In this document: positions 20 through 25,816 of the stretch, in pieces
How positions within the stretch are numbered: the first letter of the stretch is position 1
Layout of the letters: every line of letters begins with the position of its first letter
Assembly (NCBI GenBank): GCA_030043675.1
Contig: JASHXG010000009.1
Span: 1-42,559, forward strand
Origin: Vulcanimicrobiota bacterium
Lineage (GTDB): Bacteria > Vulcanimicrobiota > Vulcanimicrobiia > Vulcanimicrobiales > Vulcanimicrobiaceae
DNA length: 42,559 nt
Direction of reading: 5' to 3'
Made by a program: the position numbers and the translations under genes
Notes under the pieces: generated by a model
What the model was told of the DNA's origin: nothing
Seen by the model: only the letters and a program-made list of their open reading frames with translations
Database searches by the model: none

Positions 20-982
20 CTACTTCTGCGGCGGCGTGCTGATCGTTACCGAGAACGGCTCTTCGACGGTCACCGTTTTGAGCACCGTGCCTCCCTGCGG
101 GTATTTCCAAACTCCAACAAAAGCGCGCGCGTCGTCAGCTCCAACGATCCTATCTCGATCTATCCAGGTGCTGTAGATTCCATTTCCGTACGGGCTCAGG
201 GTGGTCGATCCGACAACTTGCGCGCCCGACGCCGTGATCTTCAAGCGATAGAGCACGCCGGCGGCTTCGTCGTACATCGTCATATGCTTTCCATCCCATT
301 GAACGCTGCCTGGACCTCGCATGCCTTCGCTCAGTTGAAGATTGGTAAACGCCTTGCCGCCTTTGGGAAGTTCCGTCAGGACGGCGCCGCTCATGGACTT
401 GTTATATCCGTCGGCGAAGAGGTCGCCTTTGTTGTCGTAACCGTAGAATGTCGGGTTGTTGATATAGGAATTCTCGTACAGCGACGGAGTTCCCGAGGCG
501 TTTGCATAGATCGCTGCGTACTGGCTGTCGCTCATGTCGACGTCCACCGCGAGATTCCCCGTGGTAGGATCCGCAGCGCACGTATAAGGAGCCGTGGCCG
601 GCGAGCTGCTTAGCGTCGCGATAGGGCGCGACCCACCGTGCGCGTACTCGAGCGTCTCGTTTTCACCGATGAGCGGTACGAAGACGTCACCGTTGTCGTC
701 CGAGCATAGCCCGACGGGCTGATCAAAGTCCGATCCCGCCAGGACGCCGACCAGTCCCAGCTTCGGATAGGATAAGACGTACACGGCGCTCGTCCACAGC
801 GACGAGACGTAGAGCAGCGACCCCTGCTTAGCACCGGCGAGCATCCACGAACGCGCCGGCTTCGTGACGTTGTGCTCCGGGAGGGCCTGACCCAAGCCGC
901 TCTGAGTGGTCGGCGAGAGCGGCGAGCCGCAACCGGCAAGCGCGACGCACAAGGCCGCGGCCGGCAATGTCAGCCGCCTCAC
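20..982 (-). CDS. Lipoprotein of unknown function, predicted beta-propeller (family P, copy 1)
   Basis: Track ORF 20..1066. An in-frame GTG at 982..980 overlaps the TGA of the upstream paralogue (GTGA) and gives the signal peptide VRRLTLPAAALCVALAGC with a lipobox. It shares LEYAHGG..PIATL, CSD..GDVF, DPTTGNLAV, YGYD..GDLF, VQWDG and WKYPQGG blocks with 979..1968, 7260..8249 and 22245..23234. Confidence 0.8.
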   Translation of the reverse strand: MRRLTLPAAALCVALAGCGSPLSPTTQSGLGQALPEHNVTKPARSWMLAGAKQGSLLYVSSLWTSAVYVLSYPKLGLVGVLAGSDFDQPVGLCSDDNGDVFVPLIGENETLEYAHGGSRPIATLSSSPATAPYTCAADPTTGNLAVDVDMSDSQYAAIYANASGTPSLYENSYINNPTFYGYDNKGDLFADGYNKSMSGAVLTELPKGGKAFTNLQLSEGMRGPGSVQWDGKHMTMYDEAAGVLYRLKITASGAQVVGSTTLSPYGNGIYSTWIDRDRIVGADDARAFVGVWKYPQGGTVLKTVTVEEPFSVTISTPPQK

Positions 983-1968
983 TTGGGCCTCACGCTGACG
1001 GTCACGCCCCAGGGTGAGGCGACGGTGACGCCACCAATGGCGCGGCCGCCGGCCGGATACTTCCAAAGATCGGTGTGAACCGAATAGTAGCTCGGCGCCG
1101 CCACGTCATTTCCCTGAATCCAAAACTGCAAGACGCGGTCGGAGCCGCGTAGCTTCGTCTTCCCGCTCACCTTGCCGCCGGCGCCGTTCGTTCGATAGAT
1201 GATTCCGGATGCCGAATCTCCGACCGCCAGGGATTTGCCGTCCCACTGCACGCCGCCGGGAAGTTTGATGGGCGCATGGATCGTGACGTCGCTGAATGCC
1301 GAGCCGCCCTTCGGTAGCTCGGCAAACACATACTTTCCGCCGGCCACGCCCGTAAACGTGGTCAGCCCCGCGACAAACAGGTTACTATGATCGTCGTAAC
1401 CACATTCGTACGGCAGGTACATGTTCGGGATCGAGTACGTCTGCGGACTTCCGCTCGCGTTCTTGTAGATCGCTATGCTCCCGGCTTCACCGCCGTTCGT
1501 CGTAACGTTGTCGACGGCCAGATCGCCGGTCGCCGGATCGACCGCGCAGGCTTCGGCGGATTGGCCCGTTTCGTACAGTGTTGCAATCGGCGTCGTGCCG
1601 CCGTGCGCGTATTCGAGGATGTCCGACTGCTCGGCGTTCGGAATGAAAACGTCACCGCGCTTATCGGAGCAGAGGCTGAGTGGAAGGAAATCCGTACCGC
1701 TGAGTTCGCCCTCGCGTTTGCCGCCGGGATAAGAGAAGACGTCGACTTCCCAGTTCATCTCGGAGGAAACATACATGAGGTCGCCCTTTGTCGCATCCGG
1801 CGCCATCCACGACGGCGTCACTGGCCTCGGCACGCGTGCCATCACGCCTGGCACGGCAATCGGCCGCTGCATGTCATCCTGCGTCTGTGAAGGAACTGCG
1901 CACCCCGCGAGCAGGACTGCGGCCGCGCCGGACGCGAGCGCGAAGCGGCTGATATGCCCAACTACCAT
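979..1968 (-). CDS. Lipoprotein of unknown function, predicted beta-propeller (family P, copy 2)
   Basis: Track ORF 979..2262. The internal ATG at 1968..1966 is preceded by GGAGG about 7 nt upstream and gives MVVGHISRFALASGAAAVLLAGC (lipobox), 329 aa. It has the same conserved blocks as the other family P copies. Confidence 0.8.
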   Translation of the reverse strand: MVVGHISRFALASGAAAVLLAGCAVPSQTQDDMQRPIAVPGVMARVPRPVTPSWMAPDATKGDLMYVSSEMNWEVDVFSYPGGKREGELSGTDFLPLSLCSDKRGDVFIPNAEQSDILEYAHGGTTPIATLYETGQSAEACAVDPATGDLAVDNVTTNGGEAGSIAIYKNASGSPQTYSIPNMYLPYECGYDDHSNLFVAGLTTFTGVAGGKYVFAELPKGGSAFSDVTIHAPIKLPGGVQWDGKSLAVGDSASGIIYRTNGAGGKVSGKTKLRGSDRVLQFWIQGNDVAAPSYYSVHTDLWKYPAGGRAIGGVTVASPWGVTVSVRPK

Positions 1969-2193
1969 GTGCGACGCCTCCCCCGAGAGCGGATCGGATC
2001 GGAGGTTAGGCTGCTTCGGCAACCTTGTCGGGACACCATTGCGCTGGGGTGGCGGCGGGGCTTTTTCTTTCATGGGTTCGGCGGGGCGGGAGAGGCTACG
2101 ACGCGGTAAGCCCTGGTAAGGCGGCGAAAGGTACAAGCCGCAGGGCACATTGTACACCACTCGTTCGGGAGCGTTACACATGAGGTTTGTACG

Positions 2194-5723: not shown

Positions 5724-7076
5724 TCACTCGGTATCGACGGGATCGTTCGAGGGCGCTTCGGAGCGAAACAACCAGGCCGGATACGTCGTTTTCAGCGGCA
5801 CGAAGGCCCGCGGTTTTTGCGTGAAGTCGAAGCTGTCTACGAGACTGTTTGCTCGCGTGTCGGTGTAGCCCGCTCGTGTGGGTCCCAGCGGCGGAAGATC
5901 GAAGGCTTGCTCGATGAACTTCAGGATGCTGCCGTACTCGTATTGGGTGTGCGAAACATAACCGTGCTTCGCGTAAGGCGAGACGATCAGACACGGAACG
6001 CGGATTCCTAATCCGCGAAAGTCGAGTTGCGGCGGCGGCGCGTTGTCGTACCATCCGCCCCAGTCATCCCACAAGATGATAATCGCGCTATCTTTCCAGT
6101 AGCGGCTCTCACCGACGGCGTTGACCACCGCGGCAACCCACGAAGGACCCAACGGGCTACGCCAGCCGGGGTGATCGGAGTCCTGCCCACTCGGCGTGAC
6201 CCACGTCACCGACGCGAGCTTGCCGCGGCCGGGATCGGTCAAGATCCTGGTCTGCGGTACGATGATGTCCTTGTTCCAGTCAGGACCGTCGCGGACGTAT
6301 TTGATCGCTTCGAACGGCTCCCAAAAACCGGCGTCGAGCAGCTTGGTCGCATAGAACTTCCACGAGACGTGCGCGTCATCGAGCGTCTCGGCTATAGTCC
6401 TGAACTGCGTGAAGCAGGGGAAAGGACCGGTGAAGTAGCTGACGTGCCGGAGTTCGTCCACGGTCGAACTCTTGGTGCCTGAAGGCGAATCGCAATCGTC
6501 GGGCGCGCCATCCGTAAAATTGACCTCGGCCTTCTTGCGAGTGACGTTGTCGGTGCCCGCGACGAGCGTCAAATGCGCGGTGAAACTTGGGCCGAACTCG
6601 GTCGGGAACATATGATCGGCGAGCACGTACTGGCGCGCCATCGTCCAGTAAGGCGCGATCAGCGAGCGCCTGACGTAGGCGTAAGCTTGGTACTTTCCAC
6701 GATCGGACGAGTCCGAGAATCGGTAGAACCCGTCCATCTTGCCGTCATCCCAAGAGAGCACGGCCGGACGCCAATCGTGCGGCAGGTCCGGACCTATGAA
6801 CGAGATCTCGTGCAGCCGCACCGTCGTCCCATCGGCCGAACCGGACATCGGCGCATCCGCACCCGGATATCCGGCGAAGAAGTTTTCGAAACTGCGGTTT
6901 TCTTGAATGATGACGACGACGTGCTTGATATACTTGTTGACCGGATTTCCCGACGACGGCTCGAGCGCCGGCAGCGATGCGCTTTGCGCGTGGTTCGTCA
7001 GAGCGGAGTCGAAAGAACAACCCGCAAGAACGGACGTCAGCGCGAATAGCGCTATGGCGATAGCAAAATGCTTAAC
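5724..7076 (-). CDS. Phosphoesterase-family lipoprotein (phospholipase C / AcpA acid-phosphatase type), paralogue 1, with no canonical start codon
   Basis: The track ORF starts at ATG 6848, but the same frame stays open upstream. There it encodes KHFAIAIALFALTSVLAGC (lipobox) and NKYIKHVVVIIQENRSFENFF, which aligns with the N-termini of paralogues 17514..18854 and 24467..25816. No ATG/GTG/TTG lies in that stretch. GTT at 7076..7074 sits 8 nt after GGAGG (7089..7085). The C-terminal motifs WDDWGGWYDNAPPP and GIRVPCLIVSPYAKHGYVSH are shared with the paralogues. Confidence 0.8.
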   Translation of the reverse strand, partial: VKHFAIAIALFALTSVLAGCSFDSALTNHAQSASLPALEPSSGNPVNKYIKHVVVIIQENRSFENFFAGYPGADAPMSGSADGTTVRLHEISFIGPDLPHDWRPAVLSWDDGKMDGFYRFSDSSDRGKYQAYAYVRRSLIAPYWTMARQYVLADHMFPTEFGPSFTAHLTLVAGTDNVTRKKAEVNFTDGAPDDCDSPSGTKSSTVDELRHVSYFTGPFPCFTQFRTIAETLDDAHVSWKFYATKLLDAGFWEPFEAIKYVRDGPDWNKDIIVPQTRILTDPGRGKLASVTWVTPSGQDSDHPGWRSPLGPSWVAAVVNAVGESRYWKDSAIIILWDDWGGWYDNAPPPQLDFRGLGIRVPCLIVSPYAKHGYVSHTQYEYGSILKFIEQAFDLPPLGPTRAGYTDTRANSLVDSFDFTQKPRAFVPLKTTYPAWLFRSEAPSNDPVDTE

Positions 7077-7259
7077 GTTGGATACCTCCGCCGCACCGTA
7101 CAGCTTAGCACGGGCGAGACGCTGACGCCAGATCCGCCGCCGCGGCGTATGTGGTCATGGGCCCGCAAAACGGCTCAGTTTACGGGGCCTTTGCCTCACG
7201 AATTCTGCCCCGCTTCGCGGCATACTAGTAAGTCCAATCTTCTTGGGATGGGTAACGGC

Positions 7260-8249: not shown

Positions 8250-8263
8250 AAGGACGCCGCGCA

Positions 8264-8617
8264 TCACAGCGAGCCATCATCTGCGTCGATCTCGCTGAAG
8301 AACGTGTAGCCGCCAACGTGCTTCACGGCTGCGAACGTTCCGCGCACGGTGATCGTCTGGCCATCGTTGATGCTCGGGCTCCCAAAGGCGAAGACATGAA
8401 TGCACTGGCCCGAGCAGATCGAGAAAGTGACGTAGGAATTGCCTCGATGGGAGACCTTTCGCTCGAGTTGCTCGACCGTGCCGCTGACGGCGACGTGCCG
8501 GCCGTCGTAGCTCGACGGGCTGTTGAGAATCTGCACGACGGTTGCGGCTCCTGCCAGCGCCGGCAGCGCCGTGCAAAACCCGAATAGTGCTACGCTAAAG
8601 AGAAAGCGCCTAGCCAT
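8264..8617 (-). CDS. Secreted hypothetical protein (117 aa)
   Basis: ATG preceded by GGAGG 7 nt upstream. Signal peptide MARRFLFSVALFGFCTALPALAGA. Preferred over the antisense ORF 8246..8587, which has no signal peptide or SD. Confidence 0.65.
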   Translation of the reverse strand: MARRFLFSVALFGFCTALPALAGAATVVQILNSPSSYDGRHVAVSGTVEQLERKVSHRGNSYVTFSICSGQCIHVFAFGSPSINDGQTITVRGTFAAVKHVGGYTFFSEIDADDGSL

Positions 8618-8703
8618 ACGACCACCTCCGAAGCCCTAGCGAGCTTCTCGCCTGTATTACATCGGCCGTTGGCGGGGCAGAGTTTAGGAAGGGGGTCGGA
8701 ACG

Positions 8704-9060
8704 ATGAGGACACGGTGGCTAATCGCTTGCGCGATCGCAGCGGCGCTCGCATCGCCGGCGCGGGGTCAGAGTCCGCTCTTTACTAGCCCGAATAACGTCG
8801 TGCTGCCGCCGAAAACCGGGCAGTACGTTTGGGTGGCGGCGTCCCAAAAACTCGCTGCCGACCAAGCGGGAAGTGTCGAAGCCGACTGCCCCCGAGGCTA
8901 TGTCGTCATCAGCGGCGGCTACAACTTGCTCCCGCAAGGGCCCGCTCCCAGCGTTGTTGCGACGAGGCCGAACGGCAGGTCGAACGGCTGGATGGTAGTG
9001 CTCGCAGCGGGCCCCGCGGTGAGCGTCTCGGTCTACGCCGGGTGTGCCGCTCCCGACTAG
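8704..9060 (+). CDS. Secreted hypothetical protein (118 aa)
   Basis: G-rich SD (GGAAGGGGG) upstream of the ATG. Signal peptide MRTRWLIACAIAAALASPARG. The stop shares the palindrome CTAG with the convergent gene 9057..9419. Confidence 0.6.
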   Translation: MRTRWLIACAIAAALASPARGQSPLFTSPNNVVLPPKTGQYVWVAASQKLAADQAGSVEADCPRGYVVISGGYNLLPQGPAPSVVATRPNGRSNGWMVVLAAGPAVSVSVYAGCAAPD

Positions 9061-9419: not shown

Positions 9420-9514
9420 GCCCTCAGCGTCGCGCGTCGGGCTGGGAAGCTCAATAGAAGAACCCTCAAATGTTCCCGGGCCTCGATCCTTGTGCTTTTT
9501 TTGATGAGCTTATG

Positions 9515-10573
9515 TTATTGAATCTTCTCGATTTGCACGATGCTGAGCGCGCGAATGTATTCTGGGAGCGCGATGAACTGCACGGCGCTGAGATTCTTCT
9601 GTGAACTGCCGTCGCACGTATCGAGCGCCCACGATAGAAACTCGCGGATCGCGGCCGCAGTCGCCGAGTTAGGCTGCTTGGTTGAAACAATTACATACTC
9701 GTAACCAATGAGCGGGTAAGAGTTCGCGCCGGGCGCATAGACCAGGCTCAAACGCTGATCGGGCGGCGTGCGAGGATCGAGCTCCGAGGCACCGGCACGC
9801 ACCGTCTCCGGCGTCGGCAGTAAAAACCTGCCGGCTTGGTTTCCGATCAGGGCGGTTCCGATTCCGGCTTTTGCGACGAGATCGTGAAGGCTCGTTCCAA
9901 CGTAGGAGACGGAGTACGGATTCTTCCGGGTCGCCTGCACCATGCCGGGATTCCCGCTCGCAGTGATCGTCCCGGGCACGGCGGGCCAGACGATCGTAGT
10001 TCCGTAGCCCGGTCCCTGCTCCCACGATGGCGTCGAAAACGTCAAGTATTGCGTGAACAGAAAAGTCGAGCCCGAGCCATCGCTGCGATGAATCGGCAGA
10101 ATGGCGTGGTGCGGAAGTCTCAAGCCGGGATTCAGATCGGCAATCGGCTTGTCATCCCAGTACCGAATGGTCCCGGCGTAGATGCCGGCCAGCGTCGCTC
10201 CATCGAGCTTGAGACCCGCGTGGTTTAGCCCCGGAAGGTTGTAGTTGACGGTCAGGGCAGCGATCGCCAGCGGAACGTTGATGATTTGAGGATTTCCGCG
10301 CAGCTGCTCGTCCGACATAAAGGCATCCGAAGCCCCGATCTGAGCGGTTCCGGCAATCGCCTCCTTTATGCCGATCTCCGAACCGGTCCCGTTTGCCGTG
10401 ATGCGTACCTTCGGGTTCGTCTTAGCGTATTGCGCGATCCAGATTTGAAAGAGCGGATAGAAGAGCGTCGAGCCGGTTTCGACGAGCGTGAGCGCCGCGG
10501 CGCGAGCGGGCGGCGCCGGCAACAGCAGCGCCGCCGCGAGCGATAGGATCAGAGCGAAGCGCAGCCGCGTCAT
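9515..10573 (-). CDS. pstS: Phosphate-binding protein PstS (periplasmic/extracytoplasmic SBP)
   Basis: Track ORF 9515..10687. The internal ATG 10573..10571 overlaps the TGA of the upstream MFS gene (ATGA). Signal peptide MTRLRFALILSLAAALLLPAPPARA, followed by TLVETGSTLFYPL...ITANGTGSEIGIKEAIAGTAQIGASDAFMS, typical of PstS. Confidence 0.9.
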   Translation of the reverse strand: MTRLRFALILSLAAALLLPAPPARAAALTLVETGSTLFYPLFQIWIAQYAKTNPKVRITANGTGSEIGIKEAIAGTAQIGASDAFMSDEQLRGNPQIINVPLAIAALTVNYNLPGLNHAGLKLDGATLAGIYAGTIRYWDDKPIADLNPGLRLPHHAILPIHRSDGSGSTFLFTQYLTFSTPSWEQGPGYGTTIVWPAVPGTITASGNPGMVQATRKNPYSVSYVGTSLHDLVAKAGIGTALIGNQAGRFLLPTPETVRAGASELDPRTPPDQRLSLVYAPGANSYPLIGYEYVIVSTKQPNSATAAAIREFLSWALDTCDGSSQKNLSAVQFIALPEYIRALSIVQIEKIQ

Positions 10574-12093
10574 GCCCCTTCCCCCGTTACCTCGACCAGC
10601 TGCACGACCGTCACGTCTTCCCCGGGAGCGTCGCCGATGCCGATCCGATCGAGCTTGATGCCGGTCGTCTCGATCCGGTACAGCCACGTAACCAGAGCGC
10701 CGAGAAGCGATGTGACGATGAGGATGTAGAGCAAATACTTGGTGCCGATCGAGACCAGCAGGATCGGGAAGAGGAACGCCGTCATCACGGCGCCGACCTT
10801 CGCAAATGCCGCCGCGAAGCCCGCGCCTATGCCGCGGATTTCAGTCGGGAAGACCTCGCCGGCGAGCAAGTACGTCTGGGCGTTCGGACCGAGGTTCGTC
10901 ATGAAATCGAAGAGCATGAACCCGGCAAAAATCAGGAAGATCTTCGATTGGCCGCTGATGTCGACGGAGAGTGACGCCAAGAACAGTCCGACCGCGCAGC
11001 CGATGAAGCCGAAAATCTGCAGCTTGATCCGGCCGACCTTGTCGGCGAGCAGCACCGCAAAGAAGATGCCGACGACCAGCAGCGAGGTAATGAGGGCCGA
11101 CCCCTTCGCCGCGAGCACGTCGTTCATGATCAGATCGCTGGTGCTTCGAACGTGATCGGCCGGGGCTCCGAAGGCGGTGGCCAGAATCGTCGGCGTGAAG
11201 ATGCCGATGCCGTAGGTTCCGAGATCTTGCAAGAACCAGGGGACCGAGGCTAGGATCGTCGCGCGGCGATTGCGCACCGTATTGAAGAGGGCCGCGAAGG
11301 ACGGCCGGCGGGCGCCCGTCTCCGCGTCGCCATTGCCGTCGCCGTGCCGGACCAACGCGATTTCGCTCGGATACTGGGGCGCGCGCACGAGCAGGTTCGC
11401 CATCGCGCGCTCGGCCCGCACCTTTTGTCCTCGGACCAAGAGCCAGTTCGCGCTCTCGGTGATGTAGAACCGGCCGATCGTGACGATGATGGCCGGAATG
11501 ACGGCGGTTGCGAACATCCAGCGCCACGCGTCGAGATTGGGCTGAAAGGCGAGGATCATGAAGCCGACGCCGGTACCGGCCAGGGCGCCGACGGCTTGAA
11601 AGGCAAACGCGCCCAAGACCAGACTGCCACGTTTGGAGCTGGGCGTGTTTTCGGAGATGATCATGTGCGCGGTCGGATAGTCGCAGCCCAGGGCCAGGCC
11701 CAATCCAAACAGACAGATGACCAACGATATAAAGCCCGTCGACAAGACGAGCAGCGCCAGGAAGAGACAAAAGATGATCATCTCGACCACGAACATCCGC
11801 TTGCGGCCGAAGTAATCGGAGAGGCCGCCCAAGGCCACCGCGCCGATCAAAATGCCGAAGAGACTCGCCGCAGTGACGATGCCGGCTTGGGCGGGCGCGA
11901 TGCCGAACTCGCGCGAGATCAGCGGCAGGGCGATGCCGGTCATGAAGACGACGAAGCCTTCGAAGAACTTCCCGGCCGCGGCGAGGTACCAAATCCGCCA
12001 CTGCATGCCGGTCATCGGAGCCGATGCCACGTGCGTCCCGTCGGCCCATTTGGGCAACTCGTCGATATAGTCTTGGACCGATTTAGGCGTCAT
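10570..12093 (-). CDS. MFS phosphate:H+ symporter, PHS (Pho84/PHT1/PiPT-like) family
   Basis: 507 aa. GGAG lies 7 nt upstream of the ATG. The motifs GCDYPTAHMIISENTPSSKRG, VPWFLQDLGTYG and NLGPNAQTYLLAGEVFPTEIRG match, from memory, the GGDYPLS, WFLLDIAFY and NFGPN..TF..PAE.FP.R.R signatures of eukaryotic Pho84/PHT1 transporters. Confidence 0.75.
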   Translation of the reverse strand: MTPKSVQDYIDELPKWADGTHVASAPMTGMQWRIWYLAAAGKFFEGFVVFMTGIALPLISREFGIAPAQAGIVTAASLFGILIGAVALGGLSDYFGRKRMFVVEMIIFCLFLALLVLSTGFISLVICLFGLGLALGCDYPTAHMIISENTPSSKRGSLVLGAFAFQAVGALAGTGVGFMILAFQPNLDAWRWMFATAVIPAIIVTIGRFYITESANWLLVRGQKVRAERAMANLLVRAPQYPSEIALVRHGDGNGDAETGARRPSFAALFNTVRNRRATILASVPWFLQDLGTYGIGIFTPTILATAFGAPADHVRSTSDLIMNDVLAAKGSALITSLLVVGIFFAVLLADKVGRIKLQIFGFIGCAVGLFLASLSVDISGQSKIFLIFAGFMLFDFMTNLGPNAQTYLLAGEVFPTEIRGIGAGFAAAFAKVGAVMTAFLFPILLVSIGTKYLLYILIVTSLLGALVTWLYRIETTGIKLDRIGIGDAPGEDVTVVQLVEVTGEGA

Positions 12094-12165
12094 TTAAGCG
12101 CTCCTTTTAATGCAGAGCATGCGGACGGGCGGCTGGAGTTGCGATGGACGCCATTTTACAAAGAT

Positions 12166-12181: not shown

Positions 12182-12197
12182 TATGAAGTGCGCGAAA

Positions 12198-13327: not shown

Positions 13328-13336
13328 CACCACTTT

Positions 13337-15814: not shown

Positions 15815-17460
15815 ACCGCATCTCGCCGCTGGCGGGCAAGCCGGCGCCGCGCGAGTTGCTTATCGACGTATCCCAGCTCATCGATGCATACTACGATCGC
15901 CGCCCGGACGTCGACGATCCCAAGCAGCGCGTCGAGTTTGGGACGAGCGGTCATCGCGGCTCGGCCCTGGAGGGTGCCTTCAACGAGGCGCATATTCTCG
16001 CGATCACGCAAGCGATCTGCGAATACCGCCGGCAACAGGGAACCGACGGACCCTTGTACATGGGGAAAGACACGCACGCCCTCTCAGACCCGGCGCAGCG
16101 CACCGCGCTCGAGGTACTAGCTGCCAATGACGTGACGGCGATCGTCCAGCGCGACGATGGCGTTACACCGACCCCGGTGATCTCGCGCGCCATTCTCGTA
16201 CACAACCGCACGCGTACCTACGGTCTTGCCGACGGGATCGTGGTCACGCCATCACACAATCCGCCTGACGACGGAGGCTTCAAATACAATCCGCCGCATG
16301 GCGGTCCGGCCGATACCGACGCGACCAGCTGGATACAAAATCGCGCCAATACGTTGCTGCGCGAGCGCAACACTGCCGTTAAGCGCAGTCCGATCGAACG
16401 GGCACTACACCATTCGCGTACGAATGCCGAGGATCTAATCGGGCCGTACGTCGACGACCTGCATCGCGTCGTCGACATGGACAGCATTCGGGGGGCCGGC
16501 CTAAAACTGGGCGTCGACCCGTTGGGCGGCGCATCGATTCACTATTGGGACCCAATCATCGAACGCTATGGGATCGACGTAACCGTCGTCAATCGCACCG
16601 TCGACCCCACTTTTTCATTCATGACGGTCGACCACGACGGCAAAATCCGCATGGACTGCTCGAGTCCGTACGCGATGGCTCGGCTCGTCGCGTTGAAGGA
16701 TCGATACGACCTATCGTTTGCCAATGACACCGACGCCGATCGGCACGGAATCGTGGCGCGTTCGGCCGGCTTGATGGATCCGAATCATTTCCTCGCCGTC
16801 GCGATTCACTATCTGTTGGTGCACCGTCCGCATTGGAGTTCCGACAGCGCCGTCGGCAAAACGCTCGTCAGCAGCAGCATGATCGATCGCGTCGTCGGCC
16901 ACGTGCGCCGGACGCTTTCCGAAGTGCCGGTCGGCTTCAAGTGGTTTGTGCCCGGACTCCTCGACAGTTCGTATTGCTTCGGCGGCGAGGAGAGCGCGGG
17001 CGCGAGCTTCCTGCGGCGCGACGGCAGGGTGTGGAGCACCGATAAGGATGGCCTCATCATGGACCTCCTCGCGGCCGAGATCACGGCGCGCACGGGGAAG
17101 GATCCGGGCGAACACTACCGCGAGCTCGCCGAACGTTTCGGCACGTCCTACTATGCGCGCGTCGATTCCGCAGCGACGCCTGAAGAGAAAGCCAAGCTCG
17201 CTCGGCTCTCACCCGGCGACGTATCCGCCGAGGAGCTCGCGGGCGAGCGCATCACTGCCAAGCTGACGCATGCGCCCGGGAACGGCGCCGCGATCGGCGG
17301 CTTGAAGGTCACGTCCGAAAACGGCTGGTTCGCAGCCCGGCCTTCAGGTACCGAAGACATCTTTAAGATCTACGCCGAGAGCTTCAAGAACGAAGATCAT
17401 CTCCACGCCATCATGGATGAAGCCGGACGCATCGTAAACAAGGCGCTAACAAATGACTAG
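15796..17460 (+). CDS. pgm: Phosphoglucomutase (alpha-D-glucose-1,6-bisphosphate dependent)
   Basis: 554 aa. It has the catalytic-serine loop [17 protein letters not shown], the metal loop [13 protein letters not shown] and the sugar loop [10 protein letters not shown]. The GTG start overlaps the glgP 3' end by 19 nt. Confidence 0.95.
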
Positions 17461-17513
17461 GGTCATCATATTCACCGCGCGACTCACGGCCGTTACGGGT
17501 ACAACGCCTACCT

Positions 17514-18854
17514 ATGCGGTCCCGCGGTCTTCTGCTCGGCCTCTTTGCGATACTCGCTGCTTGCGGCGGCGGTGGTGGTTCGACGATTCCGATCGCGGTT
17601 CCAGCGGTGTCGCAGGAGGCGATCGCGCCCAACACGGCGGCCGGCAAGTACATCAAGCACGTCGTAATCGTGATCCAGGAGAATCGAAGCTTCGATAACC
17701 TCTTCTCGAGCTTTCCGAACGCCGACGGGACGAAGCGCGGAAAAATGAGCGACGGACGATCGGTCCGGCTCCGCCCGATCGACCTCTACTATCCTAAGTA
17801 TCTCACGAATAGTCACGCAGCTTTCGTTACCGAGTACGCCGACGGCAAAATGGATGGCTGGAACCTGGTCGAGGTCGGTTCTGCCCCATGCGCGCGGTGC
17901 GCTTATGCATATGTGAATCCGTCCCAGATCCAGCCGTATTGGACGATGGCACGCGAGTACGTTCTGGCCGATCATATGTTTCCGGACGAAAGCAGCGGCA
18001 GCTTCACCGGCCATCAGGACCTGATTCGCGGCGATACGGCGATCAACAAGACTGAAAGCCTGATCGACAATCCGTCGAATAGCCCGTGGGGCTGCGATGC
18101 GCCGTCCTTCACCGAGACGCCGCTCATCACCAAGAGCGGGCAGTTCATCAACGACGGACCATTTCCGTGCTTTACGTACGACACGCTCCGGGACGTGCTC
18201 GACGCGAAGAAGGTCTCGTGGAAATACTACGTGCCACCGCTCCTCGGGAACCTTCCCGGCTTGTACTGGGACGCATTCGACGCGATCAAAAAGGTGCGAT
18301 ACGGGCCCGAGTGGAGCGCCGACGTCATCATGCCGGAAAAGAAAATATTTAAAGATATTCGGGCCGGATCATTGGCGGGCGTTTCGTGGGTGATCCCGGA
18401 CGGGGCTAACTCCGATCACGCCGGATTCGCAAAGCACGACACCGGCCCGTCGTGGGTGGCGCAAGTCGTGAACGCAGTCGGTAAAAGCAAATTTTGGAGC
18501 TCCACCGCCATCGTCGTCGTCTGGGACGATTGGGGAGGCTGGTACGATCACGTCCCGCCGCCGCAGCTCACCTATGCCGGTCTGGGAATTCGCGTGCCGG
18601 CGATCGTCATCTCTCCGTATGCCAAGAAGGGCTACGTTTCGCACACGGTCTATCAATTCGGCAGCGTCGTCAAATTCGTCGAGGAGGTCTTCGGGTTGGG
18701 AAGCCTCGGGACGTCCGATCGGAGCTCCGCCAGCATGTTGGACGTCTTCGACTTCACGCAGAAGCCGCGCAAGTTCGAGCCGATCGCGGCGCCGTACTCG
18801 CAGCAGTTTTTCGAGGAGCAACCCGCCTCCAACATCCCGGTCGATACGAACTAA
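17514..18854 (+). CDS. Phosphoesterase-family lipoprotein (PLC/AcpA type), paralogue 2
   Basis: 446 aa. Signal peptide MRSRGLLLGLFAILAAC (lipobox), then KYIKHVVIVIQENRSFDNLF, WDDWGGWYDHVPPP and GIRVPAIVISPYAKKGYVSH. Confidence 0.9.
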   Translation: MRSRGLLLGLFAILAACGGGGGSTIPIAVPAVSQEAIAPNTAAGKYIKHVVIVIQENRSFDNLFSSFPNADGTKRGKMSDGRSVRLRPIDLYYPKYLTNSHAAFVTEYADGKMDGWNLVEVGSAPCARCAYAYVNPSQIQPYWTMAREYVLADHMFPDESSGSFTGHQDLIRGDTAINKTESLIDNPSNSPWGCDAPSFTETPLITKSGQFINDGPFPCFTYDTLRDVLDAKKVSWKYYVPPLLGNLPGLYWDAFDAIKKVRYGPEWSADVIMPEKKIFKDIRAGSLAGVSWVIPDGANSDHAGFAKHDTGPSWVAQVVNAVGKSKFWSSTAIVVVWDDWGGWYDHVPPPQLTYAGLGIRVPAIVISPYAKKGYVSHTVYQFGSVVKFVEEVFGLGSLGTSDRSSASMLDVFDFTQKPRKFEPIAAPYSQQFFEEQPASNIPVDTN

Positions 18855-18901
18855 GGTTCCCCAGTAGGCGCGCCCGGCCGCCTGCCGAAAGAACGGCAAC
18901 G

Positions 18902-21601
18902 GTGAGCCACAGCGCGGTTCCTACCGGTGCGGTCGTCTTTCTGTTCTCGGACATCGAGGGAAGCTCGCGGCGTTGGGAGCGTTACACCGAAGCGATGCGC
19001 GACGCCGTGCGCCGGCACGACGAAATCCTGCGTTCCGAAATCGAGCGGCGTCGCGGGCACGTATTCAAGACCATCGGCGACGCCTTCTGCGCGGCGTTCT
19101 GGACGGTCGGCGAGGCGCTCGAGGCGGCGGTCGCGGCGCAGCGGCGCCTTGGAGGCGCAGACTTTGCCGCGGTCGATGGACTGCGCGTTCGGATCGCGAT
19201 CCATGCCGGCGAGACCGACGAACGCGCCGGCGATTACTTCGGACCCGCGGTCAACCGAACCGCGCGCCTGCTCTCAACCGGGCACGGCGGACAAATTCTC
19301 GTGTCCGGATTCGCCAGCGATCTCGCGGCCTCGAATCTTCCATCCGACATCGCGCTGCGCCAGCTTGGAACGCTGCCGCTCCGCGATCTCACTGAGCCCG
19401 AGCGCGTCTATCAAGCCGTCGCACCCGGGCTTGCCTCGGAGTTCAAGCCGCTCCGCTTGCTGGAGACGCCGCCCAACAATCTTCCGCGTCAAACGACCAG
19501 CTTCGTCGGCCGTCATGACGATTTGGCTCACGTCGAAGCGTTGCTCGGCGACTCTTCCCTGGTAACGATCGTCGGGGCGGGCGGCATCGGAAAGACGCGT
19601 CTGGCACTAGAAGCGGCTACGAGCCGGCTGAACGATTTTCCCGACGGCGCGTGGCTGGTCGACCTTTCGCCGATTTCGGACGCCGAGCTGGTCGCAAGCG
19701 CCGTGCTTTCAGCGCTGGGTGAAGAGCAATCCGAGGATATTCCACCGCTGGAGGCGCTTTTGCGCCACTCGGAAAAACGCGAGCTGCTTCTCGTCCTCGA
19801 CAACTGCGAGCACGTTATCGCAGAAGCCGCTCGCGTCGCGGCCGCCGTGTTGGAGCGTTGTCCGCGCGTCGTGCTGCTGGCGACCAGCCGCGAAGCGCTC
19901 GACGTCTCGGGAGAACGAATCCATCGCTTGCCGACGCTCGACACGGCATCGGCCACGCGGCTCTTCATCGAACGCGCCCAGGCGGCGGATCCCGATTTCT
20001 CCGCCGACGCAAAGCTCGCGATCCTCGAAGAAATTTGTCGCCGCCTGGATGGGATTGCGTTGGCGATCGAGCTGGCCGCCGCGCGAATCCGTACGATGCC
20101 CATCCAGAGCTTGGCGCGTCACTTGGAGCTACGGATGCTCGCGGGCGGACGCGACCGTAGGCCGCGCCAGCAAACGATGCAGGCACTGATCGACTGGAGC
20201 TACGATCTGCTCGCCGGCGAGGAGCGCGCGGTCCTGCGCCGTTGTTCCATCTTTCTCGGGGGCTTTACGCTCGAGGCGGCAATCGCGGTTTGCGCGCTCG
20301 AAGCCGCAGGCGAATGGCGCGCCCTCGAACTGCTCTCCTCGCTCGTCGATAAGTCGCTACTCGTTCTCGACGCACGAAGTGAGCAGCAGCGGTATCGAGT
20401 GCTGGAGCCGATCCGCGAGTATGCGTTGGAAAAGCTCGCGAGCGATGGCGAGAGCTTCGAAGCGGCGCGCCGGCACGCGCAGGCGTTTGCATCGCTCGCG
20501 CGCGCCGCCTACGCGCAGTGGGAGCAGGGCCCAAAAGCCGATTGGCTTTCGCAACTCGAACCGGACCTTCCCAACTTCCGCGCCGCGCTGCGCTGGACGA
20601 TCGAGGAGGCACATGATCTCCCTCTCGGTGCGCAAACCGTTGACGACCTCACGCCGATTTTTTTGCGCCTGACGCTGCTCGCCGAGGGCATCGAGTGGTG
20701 CGAGCGGGTGCTACGGGCCGGATTGACGTTGCCGGCGGCGGAGGAGGCGCGTCTGCGCTACGGACTGTCGATGCTCTACAACAACCAAGGCGCGAACAAC
20801 AGCTCACTCACTGAGGCGCTCGCCGCCGTTGCGCTCTATCGCGAAGCCGGCGATCGGCGTGGACTAGCCCGCGCCCTGGCGCAAGTCGCTCAGCATCACG
20901 CGAGTGCTTCGCATTATGACGACGCGCGGGTTGCTGCCGACGAAGCCCTCCGGCTTGCACGCGCATCGCAGGATCCTCTTCTGCTTGCGGGGAGTCTGCG
21001 GCGCTGCGCCGGAGCATTCACCGCCGACGGCATGGACGGCGTCCGAACTCGTTACGCCGAAAGCGTCGCGCTCTTTCGAGAGCTGGGGGCCGATGACGAG
21101 ACCGCGCGTACCCTGACGTGGTGGGGACAATCGGAAGCCGAAGCCGGCGACTATGCGAGTGCGGCCGAACGATTTCTGGAGGCGCAGCGGTTAGCCGGCC
21201 GAGATCTCTCGATGCACGTCGCGCTCGGGATTGCCTCGTGCTATCTGTCTCTCGGCGATCGCGCGGGCGCCGAACCGTTCGCTTGGGAAGCCCTCGCGCT
21301 TGCGGCGCCGGTGCATCATCCCACCAACTTGCCGACAGCGATACTGTACGTCGCCGCAAGCGCGCTTAAAATCGAGACACCCGACGCCGCGCGTCTCGTC
21401 GGCTGGGCCGAAAGACGCTTTGGCTCGACGGGGTGGCGATGGAGCGCGCAAGATCAAACGATCATCCAAGAGCTCAAAGGGCTGCTACTGCGCGAAATAC
21501 CGCAGCGCAAGCTAATGGAGCTCCTCGCCGAGGGCGCAACATGGACCGAGCCCGAGGCCGTGGCGCGCGCCGGCTTCGTCGCCGCGCGCGCGCCGATTTA
21601 G
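18902..21601 (+). CDS. Class III adenylate/guanylate cyclase fused to a STAND (NB-ARC-like) P-loop ATPase and TPR repeats
   Basis: Track ORF 18494..21601 overlaps the previous gene. The in-frame GTG at 18902 lies just before the cyclase domain (FLFSDIEGSSRRW, FKTIGDAF, GPAVNRTARL). It is followed by the P-loop VGAGGIGKTRLA and an Ala/Leu-rich TPR-like C-terminal half. No HTH is seen at the C-terminus. Confidence 0.85.
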   Translation: MSHSAVPTGAVVFLFSDIEGSSRRWERYTEAMRDAVRRHDEILRSEIERRRGHVFKTIGDAFCAAFWTVGEALEAAVAAQRRLGGADFAAVDGLRVRIAIHAGETDERAGDYFGPAVNRTARLLSTGHGGQILVSGFASDLAASNLPSDIALRQLGTLPLRDLTEPERVYQAVAPGLASEFKPLRLLETPPNNLPRQTTSFVGRHDDLAHVEALLGDSSLVTIVGAGGIGKTRLALEAATSRLNDFPDGAWLVDLSPISDAELVASAVLSALGEEQSEDIPPLEALLRHSEKRELLLVLDNCEHVIAEAARVAAAVLERCPRVVLLATSREALDVSGERIHRLPTLDTASATRLFIERAQAADPDFSADAKLAILEEICRRLDGIALAIELAAARIRTMPIQSLARHLELRMLAGGRDRRPRQQTMQALIDWSYDLLAGEERAVLRRCSIFLGGFTLEAAIAVCALEAAGEWRALELLSSLVDKSLLVLDARSEQQRYRVLEPIREYALEKLASDGESFEAARRHAQAFASLARAAYAQWEQGPKADWLSQLEPDLPNFRAALRWTIEEAHDLPLGAQTVDDLTPIFLRLTLLAEGIEWCERVLRAGLTLPAAEEARLRYGLSMLYNNQGANNSSLTEALAAVALYREAGDRRGLARALAQVAQHHASASHYDDARVAADEALRLARASQDPLLLAGSLRRCAGAFTADGMDGVRTRYAESVALFRELGADDETARTLTWWGQSEAEAGDYASAAERFLEAQRLAGRDLSMHVALGIASCYLSLGDRAGAEPFAWEALALAAPVHHPTNLPTAILYVAASALKIETPDAARLVGWAERRFGSTGWRWSAQDQTIIQELKGLLLREIPQRKLMELLAEGATWTEPEAVARAGFVAARAPI

Positions 21602-22122
21602 CAGGGTTTCGGACCTGTCTCCCGGCGAATGCCCGCATCGCGCACGTAGTAGCATTTTTGTGTAAGCGTATACGTCCCGTGGTCGCCGGTGCAGCCGTGA
21701 ACGGCCTTGTACGATCCGGTCAGCTTATTCGTGGACGAATCGTATTTGCCGGTGATGCTGAACGTGCATGCCACGTTATCGATCGTCGCCACGGAGACTC
21801 CGCTCCCCGACGTGCCAGAGACGTTCGTAACGGTCGAGGTCCTGAACGTCAACTTTGGATACGCGAACGAGAGCCAACCGCCCGTCGAGCTCTTGTACTG
21901 GGCGAACGATCCCGTTACGCGTCCTTTGCCGTAGTAGCTATCCTGTGCCGTCCCCGCATACTGGCCTCCGTAATTTAGCGCTCCCGCGTCATCACCAAAA
22001 CGCGCGCCGGCTGTTACCGGCGTCGCCCCGTTTGCGGTGCCTCCGCCGGATCCCGCACACGCCGTGAACGCGAGCGCAGCGATCAGAATGCCGAAAAGCG
22101 CTCGCTTAGATAAATGACTCAT
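21598..22122 (-). CDS. Hypothetical lipoprotein (174 aa)
   Basis: GAGGAG lies 6 nt upstream of the ATG. Signal peptide MSHLSKRALFGILIAALAFTAC (lipobox), a Gly/Ser/Thr-rich mature part, and four further Cys including the C-terminal residue. Confidence 0.7.
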   Translation of the reverse strand: MSHLSKRALFGILIAALAFTACAGSGGGTANGATPVTAGARFGDDAGALNYGGQYAGTAQDSYYGKGRVTGSFAQYKSSTGGWLSFAYPKLTFRTSTVTNVSGTSGSGVSVATIDNVACTFSITGKYDSSTNKLTGSYKAVHGCTGDHGTYTLTQKCYYVRDAGIRRETGPKPC

Positions 22123-23235: not shown

Positions 23236-24372
23236 CTAGAGCCTCAACCTAAAGACGGTCCCCTCTCCGAACACGCCGCCGCGGCCGGTCACGCCGTAAA
23301 ACGCGTCGTTTACGTCGATGAGAGCGGCGTTCGGGCCTGCACCCTCCGGGGGTCCGGTGAATCGGTAGAGCACCGTCTCTCTCCCGTCCCTCGTCATTTT
23401 GAAGATCGTCCCGGCGTCGCCGGTCCCGCCTCGCAACGTCGTTCCATAAAGAATGCCGTCGACCGCGATCAAAGCGGCCTCGGGAGCACTGCCGTCGGTT
23501 TTCTTACCGCGGCTAAACTCGTAAATCACTCGCTCGGCGCCGGAGGTACTCACGCGGAAGACGGTGCCGTCGCCTTTTTGATCGCCGCCACCCCCGGTCG
23601 TACCATAGAGTGCGCCGCCTAATAACGTCAGGCCGGCCGCGGGATAGGCGCCTTCATCGGTACCACGGTGGTACGTGAAGCGGTGGATGACCGTTTCGGC
23701 GCCGGCTTTGCTCACGCGAAAAACCGTTCCGCATCCGATGGCGCAACGGTCGGTGTGCTCGCCGCCGTATTCGGTCGTCCCGTAGAGGGCGCCGCCGACG
23801 GCGATCAACCCGGCAACCGGCTCCGCGCCGTCGGCACCTCCCTTGAATCGATAAAGGGTCGTCTCCGACTTTCCGTCGGTCGACAGACGAAAGATCGTAC
23901 CGCACCCAGAGAAGCACTCGAGCGCATGGAATCCTCCGAATTGACTGGTGCCGTAGAACGCCCCATCGAACACGGTCAACGCTGCAGCCAAACGCACCGC
24001 GCCGCGGCCGCCTTCGAAGCGGTAGATCACCCGTTCTTTCCCGTCCGGGGTCACCTTAAAGACGGTGCCGCAGCCACCGTCACAACGCTTGCTGCCGCCG
24101 CTGGTCGTCGTGCCAAAGAACGCACCGCTCGCGCCGATCAGCCCCGCGACCGGCGTCGCCCCGTCTCTGCCGCCCACGAAACGATAGACGATCCTTTCGT
24201 CGCCTGGGCTCACTACGAAGACGGTGCCGCAGCCGGGAGTACAATCGCCGGCGCCTCCGGCACTCGTCGTACCGTAGAGGTTTGCTCCCCGCGCAATCAG
24301 CCGCGAGTCCGGTCCGTCACCGTCGTCAAATCTTCCCCCGAAGCTATAGAGCGTCGTAAGGATCGGCGTCAC
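23236..24372 (-). CDS. GloVer-type (Gloeo_Verruco, TIGR03803-like) tandem-repeat protein with 7 repeats, probably a lipoprotein with an undefined start
   Basis: It contains seven ~48-55-aa repeats of the form (R/T)V(I/L)Y.F..G.DG..P.A.LI...G.LYGTT..GG......GT(V/I)F(R/K)(V/L). The coordinates use the first canonical start (GTG 24372). The same frame is open upstream to 24495 and encodes FKPGLVLCAIALSAC, a lipoprotein signal, without any ATG/GTG/TTG. Confidence 0.75.
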   Translation of the reverse strand: MTPILTTLYSFGGRFDDGDGPDSRLIARGANLYGTTSAGGAGDCTPGCGTVFVVSPGDERIVYRFVGGRDGATPVAGLIGASGAFFGTTTSGGSKRCDGGCGTVFKVTPDGKERVIYRFEGGRGAVRLAAALTVFDGAFYGTSQFGGFHALECFSGCGTIFRLSTDGKSETTLYRFKGGADGAEPVAGLIAVGGALYGTTEYGGEHTDRCAIGCGTVFRVSKAGAETVIHRFTYHRGTDEGAYPAAGLTLLGGALYGTTGGGGDQKGDGTVFRVSTSGAERVIYEFSRGKKTDGSAPEAALIAVDGILYGTTLRGGTGDAGTIFKMTRDGRETVLYRFTGPPEGAGPNAALIDVNDAFYGVTGRGGVFGEGTVFRLRL

Positions 24373-24466
24373 GTGGAGTGGCTGATCGAGCGAAAGCTGC
24401 GTGGGCGGGAGCGCGCCCCCGCGCGAGCATGCGCTTAGGGCGATGGCACAGAGAACGAGGCCCGGC

Positions 24467-25816
24467 TTAAAAGTCGTCGTCGGGCTCCGTCCTGTCTATT
24501 GGTTGCTTGAGAAAATAGCTCGGCGGCAGTGGCGCGGGAATCGGTTGAAAGCGCGTCGGCGGTTTGGAGAAGTCGAAACAATCCGAGAGATCGTCGGACC
24601 GGACGTCGGTCGTGTGCAGCGATCCCAACCCGAACGTTTCCTCGGTGAACTTCAGAATGCTGCCGAACTCGTGTTGGACGTGTGAGACGTAATGATTCTT
24701 GGCGTACGGCGATATCACGATCAGCGGGACGCGAAAACTGAGCTCGTACGAGTTGTAGAGTGGCGGTCGAACGTGGTCGTACCATCCGCCCCAGTCATCC
24801 CAAGTTACGAAGATCGCGGTGTCATTCCAATATCGGCTCTTGCCGATCGCGTTGACGACCGCTGCAACCCAGGATGGACCCGATCCGTTGTTGCTCGCGG
24901 CGTGATCGGACTCCAACGCCGTCGGCGTTACCCAAATGACGTTCGCGAGCGCTCCGCGCCTGATATCCAAAAGGACCTGCTGCGGTGGGACCACCACGTC
25001 CACGCGATAATCGCGACTCTCGCGAACGTTCAAGATGGCATCGGGCCCGTTCCAGAGTCCCTGTCCGGTGGAGGCTTGGTAGTAGCGCCAGCTGAGCGAC
25101 TTGCGCTCGAGCAAGTCGATGAGCGAAAGGCGAATGAAGCACGGATAGATCGCCGTTCCCTCGCGGCCCGCTTGATCGATCGTCTCGACCACCACTCCGG
25201 CCGGCGAGTCGCATCCACCCCCGCCTCCCAGCGGATTCTCCGCAGCTCGCAGCCCGGAGCCGTTTGCGATGGTCGACGTTCCGCTCAAGATGTACTGATG
25301 CGCCGGGAAACTCGGCCCCTCGTTGGTCTGAAACATATGGTCGGCAAACGCATACTGCGAGGCCATATCGAAGTAGGGTCGCACCTCGGCGTGCGGCACG
25401 TACCCGTAGGCGCGACGTGGCTGGAGTGGGCAGGGTAGAACCGAGTAGCATCGCACGCCGATCCTATCAAACCCGTTCATTTGACCGTCCGCGTACTCTT
25501 TCTCGAACGCCTGGTGCGAGTGACCGAGGTCGTAGGGCGCAGTTAAACTTACCGGGCGCAGCGGCACGTTCTGTCCGCTGGAGTTCAAACCGCTGCGAAC
25601 CGTATCGGCGCCGGGGAAGCCGTTGAAGAGATCGTCGACGCTGCGGTTCTCTTGAAAGATGATGACGACGTGCCGGATCTTCGACGACGCTTGCTCGGGC
25701 GAGACTGCAAGACGCAGCATCTGTGGTCCCACTTGTGGCGCCGGCACCATCGAGCTCCGCGCGCAACCGGTCAGCGCTACCAAGACAGCGATCCGTGCCC
25801 ACCCTGAACGCTCCAT
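24467..25816 (-). CDS. Phosphoesterase-family lipoprotein (PLC/AcpA type), paralogue 3
   Basis: 449 aa. GGAGG lies 8 nt upstream of the ATG. Signal peptide MERSGWARIAVLVALTGC (lipobox), then KIRHVVIIFQENRSVDDLF, WDDWGGWYDHVRPP and FRVPLIVISPYAKNHYVSH. Confidence 0.9.
   Translation of the reverse strand: MERSGWARIAVLVALTGCARSSMVPAPQVGPQMLRLAVSPEQASSKIRHVVIIFQENRSVDDLFNGFPGADTVRSGLNSSGQNVPLRPVSLTAPYDLGHSHQAFEKEYADGQMNGFDRIGVRCYSVLPCPLQPRRAYGYVPHAEVRPYFDMASQYAFADHMFQTNEGPSFPAHQYILSGTSTIANGSGLRAAENPLGGGGGCDSPAGVVVETIDQAGREGTAIYPCFIRLSLIDLLERKSLSWRYYQASTGQGLWNGPDAILNVRESRDYRVDVVVPPQQVLLDIRRGALANVIWVTPTALESDHAASNNGSGPSWVAAVVNAIGKSRYWNDTAIFVTWDDWGGWYDHVRPPLYNSYELSFRVPLIVISPYAKNHYVSHVQHEFGSILKFTEETFGLGSLHTTDVRSDDLSDCFDFSKPPTRFQPIPAPLPPSYFLKQPIDRTEPDDDF

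Follow-up and report, generated by a model that had tools for sequence, protein, structure and literature searches.

Phosphoesterases of family PF04185, which belong to the alkaline-phosphatase superfamily, are represented by Francisella AcpA, the Burkholderia acid phosphatase and the bacterial phospholipases C (PLC). β-Propellers of the NHL type (PF01436; COG3391, 'YncE') are represented by the sensor domain of PknD, and lipid-anchored β-propellers by BamB of the BAM complex and BtuG of Bacteroides, which act by binding partners or ligands. Relatives of these proteins, together with one that matches the NCBIfam model TIGR03803 ('choice-of-anchor tandem repeat GloVer-containing protein'), are encoded in contig JASHXG010000009.1 of the Vulcanimicrobiota bacterium assembly GCA_030043675.1, positions 1 to 42,559 of which form the stretch analysed here (the window). 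Between positions 20 and 25816, three PF04185 phosphoesterase genes (PLC1–PLC3) are interspersed with four copies (P1–P4) of a ~329-aa lipoprotein family, which we call family P, and with one GloVer gene. A sequence-only reading of the window had put forward the hypothesis that family P is a dedicated partner of the phosphoesterases. We lean, on balance, towards a different explanation, in which the contig would be chromosomal and belong to a soil member of the Eremiobacterota resembling Baltobacteraceae/Ca. Cybelea, and AcpA-like phosphoesterases, the six-bladed family P (~330 aa) and the seven-bladed GloVer proteins (~400 aa) would be three lineage-expanded families of envelope lipoproteins, scattered over variable regions either singly or in tandem arrays; given this spread through the genome, their interleaving in the window would be largely a by-product, to which is added a single conserved cassette of PLC3, GloVer and P4.

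Like AcpA and the bacterial PLCs, the phosphoesterases of the window are full-length PF04185 proteins, predicted to be extracytoplasmic, and they keep the QENRS, GPS/SGS serine, SDH and WDDWGG motifs; unlike them, they are ~450 aa long, predicted to be lipid-anchored and under the NCBIfam subfamily cut-offs, and they belong to a family rich in paralogues, as many as six of which can form one array. Family P shares with the PknD sensor domain and other NHL propellers six four-stranded blades with an NHL-like strand A, and with the PknD domain a predicted extracytoplasmic, membrane-tethered location and the lack of an evident catalytic site. It differs from PknD in having a lipoprotein anchor, rather than the kinase and transmembrane anchor, and in its own EYAHGG/YPxGG C–D turns, and from the PF01436 NHL proteins in lying below the Pfam threshold and in having hundreds to thousands of paralogues, almost all of them in Eremiobacterota. 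BamB, to which Foldseek matched the GloVer model best, and BtuG, which is among the matches of the family-P model, are likewise lipid-anchored β-propellers, but they have eight and seven blades, respectively, and no sequence similarity to the proteins of the window, where no BAM or TonB-dependent transporter genes lie beside P or GloVer. The GloVer product of the window fits the TIGR03803 description, with seven GloVer repeats, and is set apart as a single-domain propeller with a predicted lipobox anchor, encoded by an open reading frame (ORF) that runs into a phosphoesterase gene and begins without a canonical start. In overlapping the stop codon of the upstream gene, with an element resembling a Shine–Dalgarno (SD) sequence inside that gene, it recalls coupled overlapping gene pairs and the near-cognate AUU start of infC; known coupled pairs, however, reinitiate at ATG, GTG or TTG, and no such codon is found at GloVer in any of eight orthologues. 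The literature searched held no mention of the TIGR03803/GloVer family, and nothing relevant on Eremiobacterota with phospholipase C or on Eremiobacterota/Baltobacterales with phosphatase.

The association between family P and the phosphoesterases was assessed in a P-centred sample of 80 loci from Eremiobacterota genomes and a PLC-centred sample of 80 metagenome loci, all spanning ±10 kb; genes were called with a codon-usage model, family members were labelled by tblastn, and individual loci are referred to by labels (for example, L161 or L170). The 153 immediate neighbour slots of P in 79 P-centred loci were filled by GloVer genes (11), other P genes (7), PLC genes (5) and genes outside these families (130), the last spanning 124 Pfam families, with NHL/SGL propellers (9) and STAND/TPR regulators (5–6) the commonest. 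A PLC gene lay within 10 kb in 13 of the 53 full-length P loci and was absent from the other 40, while P was present in 3 of 13 full-length PLC loci. The neighbours of PLC genes spanned 142 Pfam families, and no pst or Pho family was among the 25 most frequent. Adjacent P–PLC pairs, 12 in all, occurred in tandem (in both orders), divergently and convergently, and their number was close to the 9.0 expected from a within-locus shuffle (p = 0.15); by the same test, PLC–PLC adjacency was above expectation (34 versus 17, p < 2e-4). Co-occurrence within these loci, a criterion proposed together with the dedicated-partner idea, gives no support to a general partnership of family P with PF04185 genes: a few P orthogroups are stably linked to PLC genes, family P as a whole is not, and a consistent adjacency and orientation is confined to the P4-type subgroup, by way of the GloVer gene.

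The divergent pair PLC1/P3, previously singled out for its shared intergenic region, has the spacer described, but the pair itself is not conserved. Locus L170 aligns with positions 8254–21065 of the window (12.8 kb) at 86% nucleotide identity, with pstS, the gene of a major facilitator superfamily (MFS) transporter, bestrophin, glgP, pgm, PLC2 and a cyclase–STAND gene in synteny. Directly after the P3 stop codon the synteny breaks off sharply (window 8250–8254 versus L170:739), and L170 carries an unrelated 448-aa lipoprotein gene where the window has P3, PLC1 and the genes further left. No orthologous PLC1/P3 pair was found in the other loci examined, and the closest relatives of P3 share no more than 39% identity with it. 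From the break at 8254 we conclude that the P- and PLC-rich left part of the window is a variable region, and such local interleaving of expanded families should be read as a functional module only with caution.

A different picture emerged around PLC3. The arrangement PLC3-type → GloVer ← P4-type recurs in seven loci and in two genomic contexts, and the third gene of the trio is in every case the closest relative of P4 by tblastn. In the first context (the window, L161, L163 and L166), a methyltransferase gene lies on one side and, where the contig reaches, a 174-aa ORF, the cyclase–STAND gene, PLC2, pgm and glgP lie on the other; L167 is a short contig with the same trio. In the second (L162 and L165; the contig of L164 ends before the P position), AdoHcyase, MetK and a 205-aa ORF are found on one side and a patatin or an FAD mono-oxygenase on the other. 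Within the trio, identities are 77–85% (PLC3), 59–85% (GloVer) and 64–81% (P4), and all three co-diverge; the PLC3 orthologues as a set span 76–85%. P4 orthologues occupy the convergent position in L161, L162, L163, L165, L166, L167 and L169 (51–81% identity), the most distant of these, L169, having kept GloVer ← P4-type at 49% and 51% identity. GloVer and P4 meet at their 3' ends, which abut or share up to 6 nt. The GloVer gene between P4 and PLC3, correctly recognized beforehand as that of a seven-bladed lipoprotein, scores 224.8 bits against TIGR03803 (cut-off 44) with seven repeats in the product of 23236–24372 (378 aa); its AlphaFold2 (AF2) model is a seven-bladed propeller with 28 strands and a predicted local distance difference test (pLDDT) score of 93.2, for which Foldseek returned BamB as best match, then kelch and SGL propellers, at template-modelling (TM) scores of ~0.5. 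Homology searches found at least 7,990 GloVer homologues. Although noted earlier only as lying in between, GloVer is the gene of the trio that is coupled most tightly to PLC3, ahead of the NHL-type propeller. The PLC3 and GloVer proteins probably cooperate at the membrane, possibly joined by P4, and the cassette is a concrete candidate for a phosphoesterase complex. In the second context, a patatin-like phospholipase gene (L162:10638–11831) lies directly beyond the P4-type gene, a possible hint at a lipid-related role. We also noted a second conserved unit, made up of the two propeller families, in which the gene of another GloVer lipoprotein (MKRSCLLL..LAACGGS) immediately precedes a family-P gene in the same orientation, separated from it by 18–37 nt, in seven genomes (L008, L016, L022, L026, L032, L045 and L051).

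A translational coupling of GloVer to PLC3 is suggested by their junction. The PLC3 stop codon (24467–24469) lies inside the GloVer reading frame, and the lipoprotein signal peptide of that frame is encoded at 24427–24480, upstream of any ATG, GTG or TTG, where the frame reads ..TTTFKPGLVLCAIALSAC... In all eight distinct junctions (window 24427–24495, minus strand; L161–L168) the GloVer frame runs upstream of any canonical start. The overlap with the PLC stop reads …GAC GAC GAY TTY TAR, the PLC proteins ending in PDDDF in all eight, and the encoded signal peptide follows the pattern (K/R)-L-R-x-V-L-C-x-x-A-L-x-A-C-(S/A)-R-G-G-x-L-P-P, with a conserved lipobox, L-x-A-C. In seven of the eight, the GloVer frame is bounded by a stop codon 8–9 codons further upstream, and between this upstream stop and the lipobox cysteine none of the eight junctions has a conserved ATG, GTG or TTG. 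Pairwise differences between junctions numbered 84/46/132 at the three codon positions, a third-position bias, and the 16 codons after the PLC stop were free of indels in the seven junctions scored (L164, with a one-codon insertion after the lipobox, was left out). This combination is a coding signature and indicates that the signal-peptide region of GloVer is translated and under coding constraint, as judged from sequence comparison.

Candidate initiators in the junction are ACG-ACG (8/8), ATT (6/8) and CTG (6/8), ACG being the sole codon conserved in all, and an SD-like AGGA/GGAG precedes the first ACG by 4–5 nt, despite the difference in the PLC residues encoded there (KD versus TE). GloVer translation would then be coupled to that of PLC3, with initiation either by termination–reinitiation or at a near-cognate ACG, ATT or CTG behind the SD-like element. 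The more distantly related PLC → GloVer pair of L079 does have a TTG start within its overlap, and the canonical GloVer start therefore seems to have been lost in the trio clade. Overlapping unidirectional gene pairs are described in PMC10666635 as showing termination–reinitiation coupling and as often encoding subunits of heteromeric complexes, from which we infer coupled expression and a probable association of the PLC3 and GloVer products. Database gene calls shorten GloVer past its signal peptide in every entry examined, a systematic annotation error, and the conserved start-less lipoprotein ORF lends itself to the study of bacterial initiation that is coupled or uses near-cognate codons. 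The idea that start-less lipoproteins are a lineage-wide feature was rejected, since among 246 homologues with a recognizable lipobox 242 have a canonical start and only four do not. Together, the cassette and the start-less ORF make a modestly novel lead, the families themselves being of known kinds.

The three phosphoesterases are confirmed by full-domain matches to PF04185 (198, 178 and 163 bits for PLC1, PLC2 and PLC3 against a cut-off of 23, covering profile positions 1–355/356), and they are 40–45% identical to one another. The motifs reported for them, QENRS, WDDWGGWYD and RVP..(V/I)(I/V)SPYAK, are present in all three, as is the lipobox. Residues E56, N57, S163, H167, S300-D301-H302 and D338-D339 are common to the three, and Ser163 aligns with the serine of the AcpA motif GPS; as in AcpA, we take the glutamate and asparagine of QENxS and the aspartates of xDDxxG to bind metal and the Ser/Thr to be the nucleophile. 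The closest solved structure to PLC2 is Francisella AcpA (2d1g, E 2.4e-30), followed by bacterial and plant PLCs. The three proteins are far under the cut-offs of both NCBIfam subfamilies, TIGR03397 (Burkholderia-type acid phosphatase; 115–163 versus 362.75 bits) and TIGR03396 (PC-PLC; 104–123 versus 580.25 bits), which marks them, by profile scores, as a separate AcpA-like subfamily, and they probably hydrolyse organophosphates in the envelope. At least 7,986 of 8,000 candidates in the homology search were PLC homologues, and tandem arrays reach six genes per 20 kb. PLC2 orthologues, 89–95% identical and in the same context, are found in L161, L163 and L170. In the alignment of 31 PF04185 homologues, tallied per column, E56T, S163D (at the putative nucleophile) and V347E (PLC2 numbering) each occur in four, and may mark a sub-clade whose active site is altered or no longer functional.

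One part of the earlier description of the phosphoesterases needs correction. The signal peptide and lipobox can be reached from a start codon in P1–P4, PLC2 and PLC3, but PLC1, like GloVer, has no ATG, GTG or TTG upstream of them: its expected start codon (7074–7076) is GTT. A GGAGG lies 8 nt upstream of this GTT and an intact signal peptide with lipobox follows it (window 7074–7090, minus strand), whereas the first in-frame ATG, GTG or TTG is that of Met77, at 6848, 76 codons downstream. Because the PLC1 orthologues in L047 and L121 begin with ATG, the GTT is an isolated anomaly, which may reflect a mutation, an error in the sequence or the use of GTT as a weak start.

The four members of family P, three of them of exactly the same length as originally noted, are mutually 30–38% identical (E 1e-25 to 1e-63; P1 and P2 38%), each has a lipobox, and the tandem P2 → P1 is kept in L001 (54% and 48% identity). 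The family had been called unnamed, which holds in so far as nothing in it rose above threshold in the Pfam and NCBIfam scans: the proteins score 13.6–17.1 bits against Pfam NHL (PF01436, clan CL0186; cut-off 20), with no match for P2, and 13 bits (E 0.05–0.07) against SGL (PF08450; cut-off 26.3). A family profile built from 67 members, however, clearly matches NHL propellers, namely the PknD sensor domain (1rwi, E 1.9e-21), the Pizza designs (E 1e-30 to 5e-37) and the TRIM2/3 NHL domains (1e-5 to 1e-3). The AF2 model of P2, made from the family alignment, has 24 strands, with a pLDDT of 88.9 and a predicted TM score of 0.84, and its C-terminal strand (319–325) carries the strand-A motif, closing the propeller. 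Foldseek matched this model to generic six-bladed YWTD/NHL propellers (TMq 0.62–0.65; target-normalized TM score 0.80 to nidogen and Pizza) and returned no enzyme-specific match from the PDB. The profile and fold searches suggested alongside the sequence-only reading thus bear out its guess of a six-bladed NHL/SMP-30-like propeller, and family P is modelled as a six-bladed NHL-type β-propeller. The conserved blocks in its list belong to a structural motif repeated in each blade, with G-x-x-x-D in strand A, G(D/N)hhV in strand B and h-Y-x-x-G-G in the C–D turn.

When conservation was mapped on the strands assigned by DSSP, the strands (0.63–0.73) and the A–B (0.74) and C–D (0.72) loops were conserved and the B–C (0.35) and D–A (0.52) loops variable; the latter hold 40 of the 50 insertion columns, against 10 in the A–B loops and none in the C–D loops. 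Since the strands and one face are rigid and conserved, and the opposite face is hypervariable with indels, family P may be a membrane-tethered binding scaffold, the paralogues of which would recognize different ligands or proteins, much as the PknD sensor domain, BamB or BtuG do, rather than an enzyme. A β-propeller phytase was considered for family P and dropped, there being no PF02333 match, no phytase fold match and no acidic face for binding Ca. Among the scored candidates, more than 1,685 were homologues of family P, and there are 3,425 clusters at 50% identity with E < 1e-30; a single 3.6-Mb contig accounts for five of the best 80 matches, and up to seven genes stand in tandem within ~21 kb. 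Some members (P0241–P0251 and others) are tandem fusions of two or three propellers, 550–922 aa long. Named members are almost all from Ca. Cybelea, Baltobacteraceae or 'Eremiobacteraeota' metagenome-assembled genomes. The Eremiobacterota, abundant in acidic, nutrient-poor soils and peat and almost uncultured, thereby invest heavily in three expanded lipoprotein families, and an NHL-type family of more than 3,400 such clusters that lacks a Pfam or NCBIfam model is a sizeable uncharacterized part of their envelope proteome.

Several observations weigh against the explanation that we prefer, and they are best considered with its alternatives. PLC genes closer than 1 kb to P had a density of 4.5 per 100 kb, against 0.99 at 3–10 kb, with seven seen beside P where 1.5 were expected (Poisson p = 0.001), so some real local P–PLC association exists, although several of the loci behind this distance-decay signal are orthologous (L012/L077/L068 and L028/L033). 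The distance-decay and shuffle tests differ in strength, and both take their baseline from within the ±10 kb loci rather than from whole genomes, so a regional co-enrichment of P with PLC may be present. This local excess, the clustering of three PLC and four P genes in a 26-kb stretch that also has pstS and the gene of a Pho84-like transporter, and the persistence of at least three P orthogroups beside PLC genes (the P4 trio, L012/L077/L068/L058 and L028/L033) speak for family P as a dedicated PF04185 partner, whether presenter, second hydrolase or inhibitor, in a Pho-regulated system for scavenging organophosphates or phospholipids. We nevertheless consider this quite unlikely, given the majority of full-length P loci that have no PLC within reach, the largely unrelated neighbours of P, the pair orientation that is not fixed and the unremarkable shuffle result, the lack of pst and Pho families among the frequent PLC neighbours, and the absence of the PLC1/P3 pair from the close relative L170; moreover, P–P arrays, PLC–PLC arrays and P–GloVer pairs are at least as frequent as P–PLC pairs. 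If, instead, family P were a lactonase or phosphotriesterase of the SGL/SMP-30/PON type carrying out a second hydrolytic step, the weak SGL matches, the few homologues that carry PF08450 and the six-bladed fold common to these enzymes would be accounted for. We regard this as very unlikely, because the SGL scores are half the cut-off, the best profile matches are non-catalytic NHL propellers (PknD, Pizza and TRIM), and the conserved residues belong to a motif repeated in every blade, the invariant columns containing no blade-specific acidic or Asn quartet such as the metal-binding set of SGL/SMP-30 proteins; in addition, the face that normally bears the active site is the most variable. That this variable face is the binding face in the scaffold reading follows from the DSSP assignment of strands and loops, and it too must be held with reserve.

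The junction of PLC3 and GloVer admits its own alternatives. A called ATG stands just after the lipobox in four of the eight junctions (L162, L165, L166 and L168), where a signal-less GloVer product is possible, and E. coli ribosomes use ACG as a start only with very low efficiency; both count against our preferred explanation. It is somewhat unlikely, in our judgement, that the two start-less genes are simply pseudogenes or products of misassembly in an otherwise unremarkable region: the isolated GTT of PLC1 and the rarity of start-less lipoproteins among the lipobox homologues, which makes the window unusual, would fit, whereas the PLC1 ORF is otherwise intact behind a perfect GGAGG, and the occurrence of the start-less GloVer frame in eight independent assemblies, with substitutions of the coding type, excludes sequencing error and recent decay for that gene. 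A programmed +1 frameshift at the TTY-TAR stop, producing a PLC3–GloVer fusion, seems extremely improbable. GloVer does lie in the +1 frame without a start, and the TTT TAA/TAG of four of the eight junctions would permit a prfB-like slip of tRNA-Phe, but the TTC T of the other four does not allow re-pairing; the distance of ~13 nt from the SD-like element down to the Phe codon is one suited to initiation and too wide for stimulation of the RF2 type; the strictly conserved lipobox implies an N-terminal signal peptide; no PF04185–GloVer fusion occurs among the PLC and GloVer homology matches; and the L079 orthologue has its TTG start in the overlap. At the other extreme, PLC3, GloVer and P4 might form an undescribed heteromeric lipoprotein complex, the stoichiometry of which would be set by near-cognate initiation of GloVer by ribosomes terminating on PLC3, a proposal that goes beyond the conserved cassette of our preferred explanation and that we regard as rather doubtful.

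Table 1. Features of the lipoprotein families and of the phosphate genes in the window
Feature	Position	Strand	Description
P1	20..982	-	Family-P lipoprotein, 320 aa; GTG start overlaps the P2 stop by 4 nt (GTGA)
P2	979..1968	-	Family-P lipoprotein, 329 aa; reference copy
PLC1	5724..7076	-	PF04185 AcpA-like phosphoesterase, predicted lipoprotein, Pfam E 3e-58
PLC1/P3 intergenic region	7077..7259		Divergent intergenic region, 183 nt
P3	7260..8249	+	Family-P lipoprotein, 329 aa; synteny breakpoint just 3'
PstS	9515..10573	-	TIGR00975, 300.7 bits (cut-off 205); overlaps the upstream MFS gene by 4 nt
MFS transporter	10570..12093	-	Probably a PHS/Pho84-type Pi:H+ symporter
PLC2	17514..18854	+	PF04185 phosphoesterase lipoprotein, Pfam E 4.4e-52; downstream of glgP-pgm
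P4	22245..23234	+	Family-P lipoprotein, 329 aa; convergent with GloVer, abuts its 3' end
GloVer gene	23236..24480	-	TIGR03803 seven-bladed propeller; first canonical start GTG 24370-24372
PLC3	24467..25816	-	PF04185 phosphoesterase lipoprotein, Pfam E 1.2e-47; first gene of the trio

Of the phosphate genes to which the sequence-only reading had drawn attention, pstS is what it was said to be, its product scoring well above the TIGR00975 cut-off (Table 1). The assignment of its neighbour as a Pho84-type symporter for inorganic phosphate (Pi) stands less firmly: the best PDB match of the MFS protein is the phosphate transporter PiPT (7sp5, E 1.6e-40, full length), but it reaches only 122 bits against NCBIfam TIGR00887, the cut-off of which is 610, so that a Pho84-type phosphate:H+ symporter is plausible. 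The pair (9515–12093, minus strand) is conserved in L170 and no pstCAB genes were found in the window; it resembles an orphan PstS whose translation is coupled to that of a secondary Pi transporter. It supports local Pi uptake and provides no link of family P to phosphate.

Rfam and tRNA scans of the window gave no match. Between PLC2 and P4 lie the gene of an adenylate-cyclase/STAND NTPase/TPR protein (18902–21601, plus strand) and a 174-aa ORF without a Pfam match (21598–22122, minus strand), both conserved in L161 and L163, and the cyclase gene also in L170. The remaining genes of the window are of an ordinary chromosomal kind and include those for Nramp, transporters and an FGE-type enzyme as well as a cox/CO-dehydrogenase cluster. 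The last, of the CO-dehydrogenase/xanthine-dehydrogenase type (35131–42478, minus strand), encodes a large Mo subunit, CoxG, two XdhC-like proteins, a CoxD-like AAA protein, a CoxE-like VWA protein and MobA, and is unrelated to the lipoprotein families.

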